Positions 3,962 to 58,716 of a stretch of 64,000 nucleotides of DNA are shown here, piece by piece. Below the pieces are notes generated by a model. It had not been told where the DNA came from and did not search any database. It saw only the letters and a list, made by a program, of their open reading frames with translations. The stretch lies in assembly GCA_017472695.1 (NCBI GenBank), contig JAFUOQ010000010.1, forward strand, positions 22,187-86,186, read 5' to 3'. Every line of letters begins with the position of its first letter. The stretch's first letter is position 1. Source of the DNA: Clostridia bacterium. GTDB taxonomy: Bacteria > Bacillota > Clostridia > Oscillospirales > CAG-272. The position numbers and the translations under genes were made by a program.

Positions 3962-4456
3962 TTAATTCAATTTTATCGCCTCTATCACAATATCAAACTC
4001 GTATTTATCAGAGAAGATTTCTATTCTTTTTGGTAAATCGTTTTCACCTATTGTGATTTTATATGTGCCGAGTGTATTATTAAATTCCATACAGGCGCTG
4101 GATTTGTCAGGGGTGGCAGAGGCAAGGCTACTTTCCTCCAAGGAAAACATAGCAAGGATTGCCGAAACCCCGCTTAAATTATCGCTATCAAACGGAATTT
4201 CAACCTCGCCTGCACGCCCAATGATTTTTCCGTCAGTCTCTATAAAGGAAACAGAAGAAAGCTCCTCGGGATATAAAAACTGCAAGGAGCGAACACCCTC
4301 TTTTTTTGATACTGCCAGCTTATATTCGCCATTGAGAGAGCACTCTGCGTAAATGTCACCCTCTTGATACGATAAAATTCCATAGCTTTGTCCATGGCAC
4401 GAGGAAAGCACCAAGGAAAAAAGCAAAATAGACATAAAAATAGCAACCTTTTTCAT
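3962..4456 (-). CDS. Putative lipoprotein, unknown function
   Basis: 164 aa. Signal peptide with lipobox-like LSSC (MKKVAIFMSILLFSLVLSSCHG). Confidence 0.6.
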   Translation of the reverse strand: MKKVAIFMSILLFSLVLSSCHGQSYGILSYQEGDIYAECSLNGEYKLAVSKKEGVRSLQFLYPEELSSVSFIETDGKIIGRAGEVEIPFDSDNLSGVSAILAMFSLEESSLASATPDKSSACMEFNNTLGTYKITIGENDLPKRIEIFSDKYEFDIVIEAIKLN

Positions 4457-7562: not shown

Positions 7563-8153
7563 ATGGAAAAAATCAGTTGGCGCGGTGGGGCTTTGGTTGC
7601 TCCTGTCCCTGCTGTTATGGTGTCACTTGGAGATATGGAAAGGTCGAATATAATTACTGTTGCGTGGTGTGGTATTACTAATACTGTTCCACCAAAAACA
7701 TATATTTCCGTTCGTCCCGAAAGGCATTCATATAATATACTAAAGGAAAGAAAGGAATTTGTTATAAATCTGACACCTGCTAATTTAACTAAAAAAGCAG
7801 ACTTTTGTGGAATGTACACAGGCAGAAGGATTGACAAATTCAAGGAGTGTGGCTTTACAAAGGAAAAGGCGACAAAAATAGATGCCCCAATGATAGGGGA
7901 GTGCCCAATTTCAATAGAGTGTAGGGTTACTGATATAATCAAGCTCGGCTCACACGATATGTTCCTTGCCGACATTTTGGCAGTCAATGTTGAAAAAGCA
8001 CTTTTAGAGGGCAACAAGCTTTGTATAAATCGCGCACACCTATGTGCATTTGCTCACGGTGAGTATTATAAATTAGGCGAAAGAATAGGCAAATTTGGAT
8101 TTTCAGTAAAAAAGAAAAAACCTATAAACAAAAAGCAATCCCCCACCTACTAA
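7563..8153 (+). CDS. Flavin reductase-like FMN-binding protein; C-terminus rewritten by repeat insertion
   Basis: 196 aa. Split-barrel flavin reductase-like N-terminus (NIITVAWCGITNTVPPKTYISVRPERHSY..EFVINL). The last 10 codons are encoded by an inserted element (8123-8153). Confidence 0.7.
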   Translation: MEKISWRGGALVAPVPAVMVSLGDMERSNIITVAWCGITNTVPPKTYISVRPERHSYNILKERKEFVINLTPANLTKKADFCGMYTGRRIDKFKECGFTKEKATKIDAPMIGECPISIECRVTDIIKLGSHDMFLADILAVNVEKALLEGNKLCINRAHLCAFAHGEYYKLGERIGKFGFSVKKKKPINKKQSPTY

Positions 8154-8231
8154 CGTAGGAGCCCCCTTTGCACAAGGGAGCCAAGGCGAAAGAATAGGCA
8201 AATTTGGATTTTCAGTAAAAAAGAAAAAACC
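8075..8231 (+). repeat. 61-bp double-hairpin element (8123-8183) flanked by a perfect ~48-bp direct duplication of the host CDS 3' end (8075-8122 and 8184-8231)
   Basis: AGGCGAAAGAATAGGCAAATTTGGATTTTCAGTAAAAAAGAAAAAACC occurs twice. Between the copies lies TATAAACAAAAAG-CAATCCC-CCACCTAC TAAC GTAGG-AGCCCCCTTTGCACAAGGGAGCCA. Reading through the second copy gives an alternative end ..KKKKPQQKKK-TAA at 8250. Confidence 0.9.
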
Positions 8232-8255
8232 ACAACAAAAGAAAAAATAAAATAA

Positions 8256-8365
8256 GCCTTCTCCAGTGGGCGATTCCCCTGCGAGGGGAAATGTCGCAAT
8301 GCGACAAAAGGGTTGCCGTCCTGCAAGGAAAGGTGGATTTTGCAAAGCAAAAGACGGATGAGGTG
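8256..8365. repeat. REP-like hairpin modules (includes module H)
   Basis: TTCCCCT-GCG-AGGGGAA at 8274-8290. TGTCGCA-A-TGCGACA at 8292-8306. GGTGGATTTTGCAAAGCAAAAGACGGATGAGG at 8332-8363 matches 21787-21815. Confidence 0.8.
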
Positions 8366-8404
8366 TCTTGTCCGTTAAAAATAATAAACAAGGAGAAAAC
8401 AAAA

Positions 8405-21515: not shown

Positions 21516-21544
21516 AAAAATCCCCGAGCAATCGGGGATTTTTT
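21516..21544 (+). terminator. Intrinsic terminator fused to palindromic repeat unit
   Basis: TCCCCG-AGCAAT-CGGGGA hairpin followed by TTTTTT. Confidence 0.85.
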
Positions 21545-21950
21545 AGATCCTTCGACTCGCATTCGCTCGCTCAGGATGACGTAGCTTTTGCGCTTCACAA
21601 CGTCATTCCGAGCTTGTCGAGGAATCTATTAGCAGGAGGATTTAAAATTGTAGAGGAAGGGCTTGCTCCTCCCGAAAAATAAAGGATGAAGCAAACGGGA
21701 GGATGATATCCTCCCCTACATAGAACAATATTGATACATCGTAGGGGACACATTGACACTCAAAAACTGCCTCCATCCTTGAGGGAGGTGGATTTTGCGG
21801 AGCAAAAGACGGAAGGAGTATCGTTAGTGGAAAGCGTACAAGGGAGCGTAGCGAGTCGTAGGCAATCTGCCTCCCGAAAATATTTTTAGATCCATTCGAC
21901 TCGCTTTGCTTCGCTCAGGATGACGTAGGGGCGAACATTGTTCGTCCGCC
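21545..21950. repeat. Large REP/BIME-like cluster (modules A, B, E, F, C, H, D, G, A, I)
   Basis: Same module set as 3641-3961 but in a different order, with module H (also at 8332) inserted between C and D. It ends with GTAGGGGCGAACATTGTTCGTCCGCC, which is also present at 54663. Confidence 0.9.
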
Positions 21951-43794: not shown

Positions 43795-45501
43795 TTATTC
43801 CTCGTCGTCCTTTGCCTTTGAAGACTTAACGATAACTGAGCTATCAGCCTCGAGAGCCTTAACAAGCTTGCGAGCGAGAAGGTCCTCTGTTTCTGCATAT
43901 GGATATTCAGCCACATAGTCAACCTTTTTAGCCTTTGGATCTGGCTCAATACCAAATTTAGCCATTACGATATCAACGATTTCCTTTGCCTTACGTAGAC
44001 CAAGACCACTCTTAATCTTTAGGAGCATTGGAACCTCTGCGAAAATCTTTGCATCGATAGCATCGTGGTGGTATTTTGACTTGTCAAATTCTTCTGGATT
44101 AAGTGCGCAGTATACACAAACAGTCTTACCACGGAGCTTAATCTTAAAGAGCTGATCCCTACCTCTGTTGTAGCTATCAAACTTCCAGCTAATCTTCGAT
44201 TTAGTACCCTTATATGAAAGAATATGGTTCTTCAATTGACTGTAGTAATCCTTAACTGTTTCGTCACTTTGGATTAGGTTAGCAGTAAAGCTACGGCTGT
44301 ACTTGATTTCAATCTTGTTACCTTCGTTATCAAAGTATGTAGGAATGATAGTAGGAACAACCTCGCCAACCTCTTCAACAACAGTTTCCTCAACTGGAGC
44401 ATCGTCCTCAACGATAGGAGCAACCTCGTCAGCTACATCCTCAACAACTGCCTCTTCAACAGCTACGTCCTCAACAGCTGCTTCCTCAACAACTGTTTCT
44501 TCAACAGCTACGTCTTCAGCAACTGTTTCTTCAACAGCTACGTCTTCAGCAACTGTTTCTTCGGTAGCCTTTGGCATTGGCTCTTCAATGATTTCCTCTT
44601 GAATGTATACCTCGGTAGCTTCAACAGGAGCTTCGGTTTCATCTTCAACGGCAGGAGCAACCTCGTCAGCTATCTCTTCGTTATTTTCAATAGCGGAGTA
44701 AAGTTGAATTGTAAATACGGAATCTGTATCGCCCCTTTCGATAATAGCCTCACCGTTTGGCTCTACACCCCAACCAACAAAGGATTGGTTACCTGCGTAG
44801 GTGTCTGGTGCACAAAGGTTAACATAATGAGATTCCTTGTAGATGAATTTATCTGTGTTACTGTCAAGGAAGAGAAGCTCAACAACAGCAGTTTCATTAA
44901 ATTCCTCGTTGCTTGGCTTTGCGTTTTCGTCAAAAATAGGATATAGATTAATAGCAAATACTGCGCTAACCTCGTCACCCTCAAGAACAATCTCGCCACC
45001 CTTTTCAAAGCTCCATCCGCTTGCTTTTACTGGAACATCTTGGTTTTCTGGCAAAATAGCATTAATTTTAGTTGTATTAGCTTTAATGATGTTTTCACAT
45101 TCAGCATCTAAATAATTGAGCTGAACAAAAACACCCTCTGCCTTCTTCTTTGCCTCTGCAATCTCATCCTCGTCTGCCCAAACAGCATAGAGAACAACTG
45201 TGTGAGTGAGAAGAAATTCAGGCTCGGAGATAATGTTTTCACCTTCTGGATCTAGACTCCAGCCGATAAACACTCTGCCTTCCTTAATTGCTGGGCGAAC
45301 AACTGCTTTTGAGAGCCAAGGCTTTTTCTCATACTCAATTTCATAATCGCCCTCGGTGTCAACGTAAACAACTTGACAACGAATAACAGCTGCGAGAATA
45401 GCACAGATGATACAAACCGCTGCAACTATAGCGCAACCAACGACGCTAACATTGAAAATATCAAATCCAGCGCCAAAAAGAATTGTGTTTACAAATTCCA
45501 T
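43795..45501 (-). CDS. Membrane-anchored surface protein with Listeria/Bacteroides-type repeats, acidic V/E/A linker and conserved C-terminal domain
   Basis: 568 aa with an N-terminal TM. Three repeats of the F(I/V)GW..(P/E).G..I pattern. Linker VAEDVAVEETVAEDVAVEETVVEE. Confidence 0.55.
   Translation of the reverse strand: MEFVNTILFGAGFDIFNVSVVGCAIVAAVCIICAILAAVIRCQVVYVDTEGDYEIEYEKKPWLSKAVVRPAIKEGRVFIGWSLDPEGENIISEPEFLLTHTVVLYAVWADEDEIAEAKKKAEGVFVQLNYLDAECENIIKANTTKINAILPENQDVPVKASGWSFEKGGEIVLEGDEVSAVFAINLYPIFDENAKPSNEEFNETAVVELLFLDSNTDKFIYKESHYVNLCAPDTYAGNQSFVGWGVEPNGEAIIERGDTDSVFTIQLYSAIENNEEIADEVAPAVEDETEAPVEATEVYIQEEIIEEPMPKATEETVAEDVAVEETVAEDVAVEETVVEEAAVEDVAVEEAVVEDVADEVAPIVEDDAPVEETVVEEVGEVVPTIIPTYFDNEGNKIEIKYSRSFTANLIQSDETVKDYYSQLKNHILSYKGTKSKISWKFDSYNRGRDQLFKIKLRGKTVCVYCALNPEEFDKSKYHHDAIDAKIFAEVPMLLKIKSGLGLRKAKEIVDIVMAKFGIEPDPKAKKVDYVAEYPYAETEDLLARKLVKALEADSSVIVKSSKAKDDEE
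44431..44565 (-). repeat. In-frame 30-bp tandem repeat encoding the acidic linker
   Basis: AACTGTTTCTTCAACAGCTACGTCTTCAGC is perfect at 44491-44520 and 44521-44550. Degenerate copies lie on both sides. Confidence 0.85.
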
Positions 45502-55379: not shown

Positions 55380-55550
55380 GGGCAAAGCCCATACCCCTAA
55401 AGATGCACGAGCCCTGAGGCTCCCTCCGGGAGGGAGCTGGCGCCGTAGGCGACTGAGGGAGAGCGCGTTACAATGAAGTTAGCGCAAAACTAAAGTCACG
55501 CAGGCTCCTTCCACCGCTAACGCGGTCCCCCTCCCTCTCGGAGGGAGGCT
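55380..55550. repeat. GC-rich hairpin repeat cluster overlapping the DUF559 gene 3' end
   Basis: Perfect palindrome GCTCCCTCC-G-GGAGGGAGC at 55419-55437. GTAGGCGACTGAGGGAGAGCG at 55444. CCTCCCTCTCGGAGGGAGG at 55528-55548, inside the last 14 codons of the DUF559 ORF. Confidence 0.8.
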
Positions 55551-55894
55551 TTTACGGTGGCATCAATATACTCGCAGACACCCCGAAAATTCGTGTTGAT
55601 TTGTTGGTTTGTAAACCGCAAGATTTTCAGATCATACCCTTCAAGTATTTCCGTGCGGAATTCATCCTTTTGCCTGCCTTCTTCGGTATAATGCTGTGAC
55701 CCATCAATTTCTATGATTAGTTTGGCTTTGTGACAGTAAAAATCCGCAATAAAATTGTCTATGGCTTTTTGCCTTTGAAATCTAATTTCATATTTTGATA
55801 GGAAATCGTACCACAAATGATTTTCCTGCGGTGTTGCATTTTTACGAAGATTTCTTGCAAGAGTAATATTCTTTTCGTTGTAATCCAGCGACAT
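55517..55894 (-). CDS. DUF559 (Vsr-like endonuclease fold) domain protein
   Basis: 125 aa. ARNLRKNATPQENHLWYDFL..RFQRQKAIDNFIADFYCHKAKLIIEIDGSQH pattern typical of DUF559. The C-terminal tail (ASLREGGGPR) is encoded by a repeat hairpin. Confidence 0.75.
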   Translation of the reverse strand: MSLDYNEKNITLARNLRKNATPQENHLWYDFLSKYEIRFQRQKAIDNFIADFYCHKAKLIIEIDGSQHYTEEGRQKDEFRTEILEGYDLKILRFTNQQINTNFRGVCEYIDATVKASLREGGGPR

Positions 55895-55953: not shown

Positions 55954-56153
55954 AGTTATATTCCGACTGCGTCGGAGTGATATTATCGCTTACGCAATAG
56001 TGATATTGAAGCCTTACGGCTTCAGTGATATTTTATTCGCCTTCAAAACTCGCGAAGCGAATACCACTCGGCGCAAGCCGAATATCACTGCGAAGCAATA
56101 TCACTCGCCGCAAGGCGAATAAAACTGCCCAACTTCCTTATGAGAAGTTGGGC
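55954..56153. repeat. Mirror-symmetric array of eight 9-mer boxes (AGTGATATT x4 then AATATCACT x4) separated by mini-hairpins
   Basis: Left boxes at 55954 (AGTTATATT), 55976, 55999 and 56024. Right boxes at 56060 (AATACCACT), 56081, 56097 and 56118 (AATAAAACT). The hairpin spacers are:
- CCGAC-TGC-GTCGG
- GAAGCC-TTAC-GGCTTC
- CGGC-GCAA-GCCG
- GC-GAA-GC
- CGCC-GCAA-GGCG
- final GCCCAACTTC-N7-GAAGTTGGGC at 56127-56153. Confidence 0.85.
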
Positions 56154-56172: not shown

Positions 56173-56424
56173 TTATTTAACAGTAACAACCTTATAGTCT
56201 TTCCATCCTTAAAGTCTTAAGCCTCCTTTGTGCAAAGGGAGGTGGGTTGCGATAGCAACTCGGAGGGATTGATTATTTAACTACTACAGATACCTTGTGT
56301 GTCTTTCGATCCTTAAAGTCTTAAGCCTCCTTTGTGCAAAGGGAGGTGGGTTGCGATAGCAACTCGGAGGGATTGATTATTTAACTACTACAGATACCTT
56401 GTGTGTCTTTCCATCCTTAAAGTC
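56173..56424 (-). repeat. 104-bp tandem unit: 48-bp copy of the GH94-like CDS 3' end + 56-bp double-hairpin element; 2 units plus a diverged third CDS-end copy
   Basis: CDS-end copies at 56377-56424 (functional), 56273-56320 (1 mismatch) and 56173-56216 (diverged, 4 nt shorter). Identical elements at 56321-56376 and 56217-56272 (TTAAGCCTCCTTTGTGCAAAGGGAGGTGGGTTGCGATAGCAACTCGGAGGGATTGA). Confidence 0.9.
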
Positions 56425-58716
56425 AGGAACGATAGTGCCATCAATTGCTTTTCCATCAACAGTAATATCAAGAGCGTCAGCCTTATATTTGCCGTTTGGA
56501 TTTGAAATTGAAATTTCGTATGTAGCACCACGGAACTCACGTGTCATTGATGCCTTATCAAATGGAAGATGTGGGTCAACTTGAAGTCCCTCATATGTTG
56601 GACGAAGACCAACAAGATAGTTTTCCATAGTGTTTGTGTACCAAGCAACAGAGCCTGTAATCCAGCTGTATTCCATTTGATAAGCACTGTTTTTGTGCTC
56701 TGGACCAAAGTAACAGTTAGAGAACATATATGGTAGGCACTTGTTTTTAATTTCTGTATTATCGCCGATGATGTAGCCAGGTGCAATCTTCTTAAATAGC
56801 TCATAAGCCAGGTCAGCCTTGCCGTACTTAAGAAGTCCTAGAATCATCCAAATATTTGTGTGCGAGTAGATTGTTCCGTTTTCGCAAATACCTGGCTCCA
56901 TAGAGGAGATACGACCGATGGTTGGGTCGAATTCCTTATAGGAAGGAGTGAGTAGTAGGTAACCAACAGGAGTTGCCATATGCTCATTCATAGCATTAAT
57001 AATTGTATTAGCGCGTTCTTCAGATGCAACACCGGAAATAAGTGACCAGCATTGTGGCTCCATAAACATCTTTGCATACTTGTTTTCCTTTGAGCCAAGA
57101 GGTGAGCCGTTGTCTGTGTAACAGCGTCTGTACCATTCGCCATCCCAAGCATTATCGTTGATAGCTGTTTTTATAGCCTCTCTACGTGCAAGATAGTTTT
57201 GCTCCTTTTCGGGCATACCAAGGAATTTAGCAAGCTCAGCCATTTCAAGTAGTGCTTGAGCATAAGCGATAGAGAGCCATACACTCTCTCCGCGACCTTC
57301 CTTACCAACGCCGGTTAGTGAGTCATTCCAGTCACCAAACTTGATAAGAAGAAGGTTGTGCTCGCCCTTGTTTGATTCTAGGAAGTCAAGGGCTCTGTCC
57401 ATATGACCAAGAACAGTAGCCTCGCCCTCGTCTCTAAATGGATATACCTCATTTAGGAACTCAACATCGCCTGTCTCGCGGAGATATGCGGTCAATGTAA
57501 ACTCAAGCCAAAGAGCAGAGTCGGAGTATGCCTTTGTATCAACCGGGTTCCAACCACGAACAGCCATACCACTTGCGTATTGGTTTTGAATAGCCTCCTT
57601 TAGAATTTGCTTTGTTCTTTCATTCTTGAAGGAAACAACACCGAAGCCATGTTGAACAATATCGCGATAACCATTATAACCCCAACGGCACCAGGTAGCA
57701 CCAAAGTGTGTTGCGTGCTTGCCCCAGAAGTTGATAAGACGGTCAAAATGCTCGTCATTAGTTGTAATGTGGTTCTTTGAATATAAGTCCTTATAGTATT
57801 TTTTTGTAGCCTCAAAGTACTCGTCTTGTGTGCCGAGGTATTTTTCAGCCATTTTTACGCTATCGTCCTCACATTCGCCTGCACCTAAGATGAGTGAAAT
57901 ATCCTTGTTCTCACCTGCATCAAGTGTAATATCAAAGCGAAGAGAGCAGATTGTAGCATTTGCAGAGCCGATGGAGTTGTAGCTAACGCCATCGCGAACT
58001 ACTTGAGGAGATGCGATTGTGCCGTATTCACCAATAAATACGTTTTGGCAGCCCTCGCTACCTGTAATCTTTTCGTCAGCAACCATAAATGCAGTTAGGT
58101 AGTTGTGAGGCTTAATGAATGGGTGCTTGTTCATATAGAAGGTGTTTCTTCCCTCGTCAAAGCGAGTGCCACGATACATAGTGTCGCCATAGCTATCGAA
58201 GCCCCATTTGAATTTGAATTGGATTTGGCTATATGTAAAGATGGAGTAGGAGCGCTTCTTTGAGCCTTCGTTCTTTACTGATAATTTCCAAATTTCGCAA
58301 GCATCGTTGCCGGTTGGCACAAATAGACGCAATTTTGCCATAGTGTCACAGGTTTTATTCTCAACTATTGTGTAGCCAAGACCTTGTGTACATTTGTAGC
58401 TTTGGTATGGGTGGCAAACAGGCTCCCAGTTGAGAGTCCAAAATTCGCCAGTTTCGTTGTCACGAATAAAAACAAGGCGGTTGTAAAGGTGGTTCTTGCC
58501 AAAAACATCGTAGTCGCAGATACGACCAACGCCTGTGTAAAGCTGAATGCCCTCCGTGCCGTTGATTTGGTAGTCGAAGCAGCCTATACCCGTTTGGTGA
58601 ACATTTGCATAGCACGCATCGTTAAATAAAAAGTTGTCAAATGGACGAGGAGTGTTAGGGGATGTAATTATAAACTCGTCGCCACTTTCGTTAAAATAAC
58701 CGTATTTGTATTCCAT
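56377..58716 (-). CDS. GH94-like glycoside phosphorylase (cellobiose/chitobiose phosphorylase family)
   Basis: 779 aa. (alpha/alpha)6-type catalytic region with KFGDWNDSL and EPGICENGTIYSHTN blocks, resembling GH94 signatures. Confidence 0.6.
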   Translation of the reverse strand: MEYKYGYFNESGDEFIITSPNTPRPFDNFLFNDACYANVHQTGIGCFDYQINGTEGIQLYTGVGRICDYDVFGKNHLYNRLVFIRDNETGEFWTLNWEPVCHPYQSYKCTQGLGYTIVENKTCDTMAKLRLFVPTGNDACEIWKLSVKNEGSKKRSYSIFTYSQIQFKFKWGFDSYGDTMYRGTRFDEGRNTFYMNKHPFIKPHNYLTAFMVADEKITGSEGCQNVFIGEYGTIASPQVVRDGVSYNSIGSANATICSLRFDITLDAGENKDISLILGAGECEDDSVKMAEKYLGTQDEYFEATKKYYKDLYSKNHITTNDEHFDRLINFWGKHATHFGATWCRWGYNGYRDIVQHGFGVVSFKNERTKQILKEAIQNQYASGMAVRGWNPVDTKAYSDSALWLEFTLTAYLRETGDVEFLNEVYPFRDEGEATVLGHMDRALDFLESNKGEHNLLLIKFGDWNDSLTGVGKEGRGESVWLSIAYAQALLEMAELAKFLGMPEKEQNYLARREAIKTAINDNAWDGEWYRRCYTDNGSPLGSKENKYAKMFMEPQCWSLISGVASEERANTIINAMNEHMATPVGYLLLTPSYKEFDPTIGRISSMEPGICENGTIYSHTNIWMILGLLKYGKADLAYELFKKIAPGYIIGDNTEIKNKCLPYMFSNCYFGPEHKNSAYQMEYSWITGSVAWYTNTMENYLVGLRPTYEGLQVDPHLPFDKASMTREFRGATYEISISNPNGKYKADALDITVDGKAIDGTIVPDFKDGKTHKVSVVVK

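Follow-up and report, generated by a model that had tools for sequence, protein, structure and literature searches.

We analysed the repeated 3' end of a GH94-family phosphorylase gene in a 64,000-nt stretch of DNA (the window) from a Clostridia bacterium (Oscillospirales, CAG-272; GenBank assembly GCA_017472695.1, contig JAFUOQ010000010.1, positions 22,187 to 86,186). At this gene end, two copies of a 56-nt double-hairpin element, which we term E, separate three copies of the end of the coding sequence (CDS). The explanation that we favour, and to which we give about even chances, is that E at this gene is a derivative, without an open reading frame (ORF), of a homing-like DUF559 endonuclease element, which replaces gene tails and spreads by recombination. 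The evidence seen directly in the data comprises the layout of the locus, the existence of empty and filled alleles, a copy-number polymorphism and sharing of the cassette across lineages, together with coding-type divergence of the tails, a chimeric middle copy at a second host gene (for a flavin reductase) and an E-DUF559-E architecture. Coordinates are positions in the window, and L-numbers denote loci from other assemblies or contigs.

The GH94-family gene (56377..58716, minus strand) contains a 779-aa ORF with Pfam matches to Glyco_hydro_94 (1e-83) and GH94_b-supersand (7e-34). Read on the minus strand, on which all features of this array lie, its functional end (H1, 56377-56424, 48 nt, GACTTTAAGGATGGAAAGACACACAAGGTATCTGTAGTAGTTAAATAA) consists of the last 15 codons and TAA and encodes DFKDGKTHKVSVVVK. 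The last 28 nt of H1 (Y, 56377-56404) are an imported tail. H1 is followed by E1 (56321-56376, TCAATCCCTCCGAGTTGCTATCGCAACCCACCTCCCTTTGCACAAAGGAGGCTTAA), a solo copy of the E repeat family, by a second 48-nt copy of the CDS end (H2, 56273-56320) with one mismatch to H1 (G>C at 56308), and by E2 (56217-56272), which is identical to E1. The outermost copy (H3, 56173-56216) is the displaced resident gene end and, at 44 nt, falls 4 nt short of H1. The opening 20 nt of H3 (X, 56197-56216) are identical to H1 and its last 24 nt (Z, 56173-56196, TATAAGGTTGTTACTGTTAAATAA) are an older tail (..YKVVTVK and TAA), diverged and out of frame with a 1-nt frame disruption. The intrinsic terminator of the resident gene end (56121..56153) comes last, as a hairpin at 56127-56153 and then a T-run. 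The order of tail, E, tail, E, diverged tail and terminator that a first-pass annotation of this DNA had described for 56173-56424 was thus confirmed position by position. Tandem Repeats Finder reported the array with a period of 104, 2.2 copies, 98% matches and a score of 449, and the 56-mer occurs exactly twice in the window, against 0 occurrences expected by chance. E folds into two hairpins that are more stable than shuffled sequence (DNA fold z-scores of -3.2 and -3.5 for the two strands).

Relatives of the GH94 gene were found by exact-protein look-ups; a metagenome scan for GH94 relatives returned 16 loci, none of them close. The relatives, whose proteins are ~95% identical, split into two classes, empty and filled. 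In the empty alleles (L141-145) the protein ends in ..DFKDGKKHTV(V/I)VTVK*, the terminator follows directly and there is no E; the empty-site sequence reads ..CCTGACTTCAAGGATGG.. In the filled alleles (L140 and L147) the protein ends in ..THKVSVVVK*, followed by the same E, an intact in-frame FKDGKKHTVVVTVK* and then the terminator. The outermost copy in the window had been suspected to be a displaced gene end, and the E-less L141-145 do carry that tail type and the terminator as their functional end; comparison of the orthologous locus therefore yielded both the empty and the filled state. Against the functional tail of the empty L141, the distal tails of L140 and L147 show 2 differing nt, both synonymous; against that of L144 they show 2-4, of which one falls in an amino-acid-changing codon. 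Distal and proximal tails within the filled GH94 alleles differ at 14-15 positions, and a THKV-type tail without E is present in the relative L146. Across Y and E, the window and L140 differ at only 3 of 84 nt, while the genes are 86.4% identical (binomial P = 0.002); near-identity of the cassette despite this divergence points to its recent sharing between lineages. The earlier suggestion of an entity that integrates at a 3' end and regenerates it is thus supported for the pattern, with a new tail and E, a displaced old tail and sharing between lineages, and is not supported where it supposed a target duplication made by a 56-bp element.

Seven public contigs encode the identical GH94 protein. 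In two of these, from other assemblies (L121 and L122), the two-unit array is the same down to the G>C mismatch, and a third, from another study (L123), has a single unit, H-E-(X+Z), without H2. That the assembler expanded a single copy might be suspected from the short-read metagenome data and from the single unit in L123. However, two further assemblies repeat the two-unit array with its diagnostic mismatch, assemblers usually collapse repeats rather than expand them, and even the one-unit form has the tail-E-tail order, found in many lineages. The chance of an assembly artefact is in our view almost negligible: the two-unit array was reproduced in L121 and L122, and L123 still keeps one unit. 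Because L123 has one unit, the base state is taken to be new end, E and old end, with the second unit as a later expansion. The triplication at GH94 is accordingly a secondary expansion by unequal crossover or slippage, polymorphic in copy number.

Three other origins of a repeated array were considered and rejected. A simple tandem repeat made by slippage alone fits units 1 and 2, but the tail allele in the third copy is a different one and corresponds to the functional tails of E-less relatives; local slippage, the fallback of the first-pass annotation, also fails because other genes and other genomes show the layout too, and it is not a one-off. In a CRISPR array the 'spacers' would here be identical members of a conserved structured family and the 'repeats' would be CDS ends; there are no cas genes and no CRISPR hit at the gathering threshold. 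A diversity-generating retroelement does not fit the sole mismatch, a G>C change that is not adenine-specific, and there is no reverse transcriptase among the scanned neighbours.

The second host is the flavin-reductase-like gene at 7563..8153 (plus strand), whose ORF continues into E and has its stop in the hairpin 1 loop (..KKQSPTY*). The claim that the same element family occurs at 8.1 kb with a ~48-bp duplication and in the same relative orientation was borne out, the repeat being perfect over 48 nt. On the plus strand, the proximal gene-end copy (8075..8122) is a perfect direct repeat of 8184-8231 and is followed by a remnant of the imported tail (8123-8135, TATAAACAAAAAG) and by the E-related element (8136-8183), which is oriented to its host gene as at GH94. 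The distal 48-nt copy and the displaced resident tail, ..PQQKKK and TAA, span 8184..8250. PQQKKK serves as the functional end of E-less relatives such as L224, and the empty-site sequence at this gene reads ..AAATTGGGCGAAAGAAT.. The layout tail*-E-tail0 occurs at the flavin-reductase locus in four further lineages, whose distal tails vary (PQQKKK, RINKNK, PQRKK and LPQRKK, of which at least PQQKKK and PQRKK are functional in E-less relatives). The junction GGGAGCCA|AGG(C/T)GA is common to five flavin-reductase lineages with differing distal tails. Hairpin 1 of the orthologous E in L218, L222 and L223 shows a compensatory change, CCTAC/GTAGG versus CCCAC/GTGGG. The L223 array has grown to two E copies and three tails; the middle one is chimeric between the tails on either side, a signature of unequal crossover. 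Two alleles of the same species, L222 (filled) and L226 (empty), are ~99% identical on either side of a replaced block of ~250 nt. The block begins within the final ~35 nt of the CDS and stops shortly ahead of the following gene. This pair of alleles shows block transfer by ordinary recombination.

The spacer between the flavin-reductase and GDSL-lipase genes also holds further repeats. Two E-superfamily elements in reverse orientation lie at 8262-8380 (plus strand), past the displaced flavin-reductase tail and ahead of the GDSL-lipase gene, and the spacer contains three E-superfamily elements in 250 nt. A different repeat family, TGTAGGGG(C/A)G with a palindrome, was found in the flavin-reductase spacer of L223-L226; its GTAG head and hairpin resemble repetitive extragenic palindromic (REP) sequences. 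This repeat is present in the E-less L224-L226 and downstream of the cassette in L223.

Differences between paired tails are almost all synonymous. The proximal and distal copies of L218 have 11 differing nt in synonymous codons and 1 in an amino-acid-changing codon, those of L067 have 6 and 0, and those of L095 have 7 and 1, respectively. Similarly, the four distal flavin-reductase copies have 10 variable sites in synonymous-only codons versus 1 (P = 2e-5). Differences of this kind suggest that the copies evolved as working ends in separate lineages before they were joined, or that they return to service often enough to escape decay. The repeats had been put down as a target duplication made by the 56-bp element; the paired copies are instead different tail alleles, which appear to have diverged under coding constraint before joining. 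A return to service is central to the idea of switchable C-termini, in which the displaced tail would be kept because recombination between the repeats restores it in cycles of gain and loss. Intact distal ORF ends with almost only synonymous variation would agree with such switching, and the occurrence of either one or two units shows that the repeats do recombine. The distal GH94 tail in the window is, however, frame-disrupted, and a loss would be irreversible without re-import; we regard switching as highly improbable.

The wider E family was collected with the pattern CAATCCC-N15-45-CCCTTTGCACAARGGAG, scanned in one-genome-per-species contigs and in IMG/VR viral contigs. Its consensus is A-CAATCCCTC, a hairpin of free sequence with maintained pairing, and then CTCCCTTTGCACAAGGGAG-CC. 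Among the matches listed, the pattern is present in at least 120 stretches, nearly all from Oscillospiraceae, Acutalibacteraceae and other gut Clostridia metagenome-assembled genomes (MAGs), and in 69 IMG/VR viral contigs, some with 3-5 copies. E is co-oriented with the flanking ORFs in 62 cases and convergent in 59, and on this lack of orientation bias a strand-specific RNA element of the 3' untranslated region was rejected. Rfam gave no match to E at the gathering threshold and none credible up to E = 10, the only match being the neighbouring Gut-1 motif. No description of E or of a link between E and DUF559 was found in the published literature searched (E motif strings in both orientations, REP/RAYT in these taxa, and DUF559).

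Flanking repeats were then counted in a census based on a profile search, which gave 349 near-full-length E copies, 309 of them evaluable; the flanking-repeat score reached the threshold of >=20 in 23 of the 309. Long repeats whose distal copy abuts the GGGAG(CC) end of E were seen only at the GH94 and flavin-reductase genes, at the end of an ABC transporter gene (L067, where the array comprises two E copies and three tails), at the end of a gene for a 432-aa membrane protein (L095, a CDS-end duplication) and at L119. The last was rejected as a fifth CDS-end case, the upstream gene being divergent (htpG-like) and the locus an old non-coding (E-H)(E-H) tandem. High-scoring repeats at L113, L037, L073, L100 and L066 were likewise rejected as duplications; other dispersed elements lie on both flanks. 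All four CDS-end cases share one arrangement: E has the host gene on its CAATCCC side, the proximal copy has its own stop and is followed by a spacer of 0-37 nt and then E, and the distal copy begins 2-5 nt past hairpin 2.

The junctions at the four host genes have no common motif, which bears on a miniature site-specific integrative element. Here E would be an att-like site on which a tyrosine or serine recombinase acts in trans, in the manner of phage 21 or e14 at icd. The gene end is indeed regenerated with the old end displaced, and tandem copies resemble tandem lysogens. Yet a core common to the junctions of the four target genes is missing, the eight ORFs near the GH94 locus scanned against Pfam include no recombinase or integrase, a circle of ~104 bp is implausible as double-stranded DNA, and the protein associated with E is a nuclease rather than a recombinase. 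We consider the likelihood of such an element to be very remote.

Several observations touch on where elements of this superfamily are found. In L147 a second E-superfamily element of another subfamily (3990-4050) lies 4 nt past the stop of the displaced GH94 tail and is missing in L140, whose gene is 99.2% identical; this suggests that E-superfamily elements favour sites just after stop codons. In IMG/VR, arrays of 3-4 E-superfamily elements in L175 (1400-1700) and L214 (800-1100, reverse strand) lie directly upstream of an ORF that resembles, by eye, a terminase small subunit, which would put them near the presumed packaging region. All genomes with CDS-end duplications (the window, L067 and L095) have a GC content of 41-43.5% (ranks 7-16 of 120), and typical E hosts have a median of 51%; this low-GC association is weak, being post hoc and drawn from three lineages.

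The first-pass annotation had taken the cargo to be only 56 bp and missed the link of E to a protein: E is the terminal repeat of DUF559 endonuclease units. DUF559 homologues were found in five E-centred genome loci, and inverted E copies of matching subfamily bracket the ORF in all four that could be evaluated. The complete unit of ~0.5 kb has two inverted E copies around a ~120-aa DUF559 ORF (Vsr-like PD-(D/E)XK). In L061 and L068 the reversed left E has GGAGGGATTG at its end, a few bases ahead of the ATG, and this stretch would serve as a Shine-Dalgarno site; the right E supplies the last codons and the stop. At viral DUF559 loci, bracketing by inverted E was seen in at least 3, with other E subfamilies and with left and right copies of the same subfamily, and the flanking inverted repeat beats every shuffle in 7 of 14 DUF559-centred viral loci. 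A homologue search gave at least 8000 DUF559 clusters at 90% identity (match E <= 1e-10), and the E-encoded tail QSLSQLR* or a variant ends 114 of the closest 120, which were inspected. Most of the listed clusters are on very short contigs, as expected for repeats. The DUF559 profile matched PDB 3HRL at 1.9e-18 and, weakly (0.027), the intron homing endonuclease I-Bth0305I (3R3P); VSR, DUF559 and 3r3p have been placed in one PD-(D/E)XK clade (PMC3424549). The E-DUF559 architecture is not described in PMC8836110, in PMC3424549 or in the titles and abstracts of the DUF559-mentioning papers searched. The E family is therefore apparently undescribed, and of most value here are the link of a widespread hairpin repeat with DUF559 and the evidence for cross-species swapping of the tails of ordinary genes.

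In the window, a DUF559 gene with the Vsr-like endonuclease fold (55517..55894, minus strand; Pfam DUF559 2.8e-28) lies 483 nt downstream of the GH94 stop. It is accompanied by two E-superfamily double-hairpin elements on the same strand (55505-55552 and 55418-55463), the first of which overlaps the 3' end of the DUF559 ORF and holds its last codons and stop. No DUF559 gene lies downstream of the identical GH94 protein in L123. Two full DUF559 units elsewhere are flanked by diverged duplications, of ~60-91 nt in L064 and ~61 nt in L229. The wobble pairs of E show a strand bias (380 versus 19), which we take as weak evidence for an active strand because most of it comes from a single conserved G.U pair at the hairpin 2 base. 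Nearly all E copies have, on the strand complementary to CAATCCC, a conserved G.T wobble as the closing pair of hairpin 2. Vsr-type nucleases recognise T/G mismatches, and we speculate that an extruded E hairpin could be a substrate of the nuclease.

Vsr-type enzymes are also nickases, and this established property would suit true transposition with a long target-site duplication. An E or DUF559 unit would enter between staggered nicks 48-100 nt apart, fill-in would duplicate the gene end, and alleles would be exchanged later. The L064 repeats, which abut both ends of the unit, and the perfect 48-nt repeat at 8.1 kb would agree with this course of events. However, in all four CDS-end cases the copies differ, either within the repeat or past it, in a manner constrained by coding, and the proximal repeat does not abut the inner end of E but is separated from it by the tail, the stop and the spacer. 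Moreover, the great majority of E copies have no duplication, and two identical copies running through the spacer were found only in secondary arrays. We therefore judge transposition of this kind to be improbable. A conventional transposon or miniature inverted-repeat transposable element with target-site duplications was rejected outright: its repeats should abut both ends of most copies, whereas only 23 of the 309 reach the threshold and only the loci listed above abut the outer end of E.

Our proposal is instead that a DUF559 endonuclease element has E as its terminal module and that solo copies of E derive from the full unit. The first junction would have formed at the outer end of E. At GH94, a cassette made up of E and an alternative CDS tail lies ahead of the resident tail; the gene now ends in the imported tail, and the resident tail and terminator are left unused downstream. 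The cassette would pass between strains and species by homologous recombination, with the gene body as the left arm and the displaced tail or downstream DNA as the right arm. The DUF559 nuclease would drive this spread by cutting empty sites, like free-standing homing endonucleases. The 104-nt unit would have been duplicated later, by unequal crossover or slippage between the flanking repeats.

A number of points weigh against this proposal. Only the 56 nt of E lie between the tails at GH94, and there is no endonuclease ORF there or at the three other CDS-end loci. Ordinary recombination alone can move the block, and a drive is not required by the data. The DUF559 gene of the window has no upstream E and its proximity to the GH94 array may be coincidental, and the flanking repeats of L064 are out of frame with the upstream gene. 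Some 95% of the 309 evaluable E copies have no long flanking repeat, so tail replacement is a minority outcome; the idea that copies of the element are each flanked by a duplicated upstream CDS end is in this respect not supported, although duplicated gene ends do recur at four genes. Finally, nearly all sequences compared are short-read MAGs or metagenome contigs, and the search pattern demanded an intact E, which biases the collection towards complete elements.

A passive origin of the arrays is possible but, in our assessment, unlikely. E would be a REP-like bystander; in a donor lineage with E directly after its stop codon, polymerase stalling at the hairpin would have duplicated tail plus E in tandem, and homologous recombination with a crossover in the second tail copy would have moved the insertion into related alleles, with no dedicated enzyme. 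Tandem arrays that contain E without any coding context do exist (L007 and L119), copy number changes rapidly (one versus two units with an identical GH94 protein), and the transfer of a block between recombination breakpoints was seen directly in L222 and L226. The position of the junction just past the stable hairpin 2, at a distance of 2-5 nt in all cases, also speaks for this origin. Nevertheless, a donor-type tail-E-tail-E array ending in E was not found. Crossovers in short arms explain poorly why the same precise junction recurs although the distal copies differ from the fourth base onward, and the occurrence at four unrelated genes and the tight link between E and the endonuclease would be left as coincidence. 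The homing-like DUF559 element thus remains the reading that we prefer.

The surroundings of the GH94 array and a few other repeats of the window were also recorded. Among the eight scanned ORFs, Pfam matches were to GH94, DUF4340, ABC_transp_aux, DUF559 and GNAT. The downstream neighbours of GH94 differ in every lineage compared, which makes the GH94 gene end a boundary of a variable region as well. The interval from the GH94 terminator to the DUF559 gene contains a Gut-1 RNA motif (RF01706, 56.3 bits; 56056-56127, minus strand), an array of short hairpins with (A/G)TATCAC before each; L123 has a similar array followed by a different gene. Elsewhere in the window, a 47-nt repeat, ATTTTTTAGATCCTTCGACTCGCATTCGCTCGCTCAGGATGACGTAG, occurs twice (21538-21584 and 21882-21928), 344 nt apart and with 79% identity, and is probably another dispersed element. 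An array with a 15-nt period (also 30 and 45) and ~8 copies at 44352-44562 is presumed to be coding.

More tentatively than for the GH94 locus itself, we suggest that E and DUF559 together form a previously unrecognised class of selfish element of bacteria and phages, ~0.5 kb in size with thousands of solo hairpins, which can home into the ends of housekeeping genes with a tail of its own. It would be a bacterial counterpart of the mobile ORFs (mORFs) of mitochondria and a second partnership of the REP-RAYT kind, built on a different enzyme. If the link holds, the very large DUF559 family (at least 8000 clusters) can be assigned a role, that of driving a mobile element, and if the suggestion is true, a widespread non-coding repeat of gut Clostridia and phages is accounted for. 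The last codons of ordinary metabolic genes can be exchanged between species, leaving mosaic C-termini and leftover pseudo-ends, and gene calling, MAG assembly and tail-based phylogenies can all be led astray by such structures.

The closest parallel is with the endonuclease mORFs of fungal mitochondria (Allomyces atp6; Glomus atp6, atp9, cox2 and nad3), which bring a foreign C-terminus and displace the native one (PMC3630166). The displaced native C-terminus in those cases differs from that of relatives only synonymously, the inserted copy is divergent, and interspecies transfer has been inferred (PMC3630166). The E cassettes follow the same order of gene body, foreign C-terminus, element and displaced native C-terminus, and here too the displaced end matches that of relatives; in addition, the DUF559 nuclease superfamily also holds the homing endonuclease I-Bth0305I. 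Unlike mORFs, the E cassette is bacterial and chromosomal, has 56 nt without an ORF between the tails, and belongs to a family of double-hairpin inverted terminal repeats. Its associated nuclease is of the Vsr-like DUF559 type rather than LAGLIDADG or GIY-YIG, and would cut empty sites only by analogy.

The resemblance to REP/REPIN-RAYT systems is of another kind. In both, short structured repeats are dispersed mostly outside genes and far outnumber a small protein gene bracketed by inverted copies, and G.T wobble pairs favour one strand. E differs in bracketing a PD-(D/E)XK nuclease and not an HUH Y1 transposase, in having no GTAG head, and in that one hairpin is hypervariable with compensatory changes. 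It also encodes the end of the ORF and occurs in phage contigs and across families.

Rebuilt gene ends are known from other systems as well. Integrative elements (phage 21 and e14 at icd, and tRNA-targeting islands) bring a substitute gene end with synonymous differences and leave the original downstream. The rebuilt end and the pseudo-end are the same in E cassettes, but those elements are of kilobase scale with an integrase and an att core, both of which E lacks. The double-hairpin elements or GC clusters of fungal mitochondria are G+C-rich two-hairpin mobile sequences of tens of nt in A+T-richer genomes, often by gene ends. They are similar to E in form, but are organellar, unrelated to E in sequence and without an established partner protein. 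Finally, polymorphic toxin loci (Rhs, CdiA and MafB) acquire new 3' ends by recombination, and orphan tails accumulate downstream. The tails exchanged there are toxin domains with immunity genes under diversifying selection, whereas those exchanged with E are the last 9-20 codons of housekeeping enzymes.

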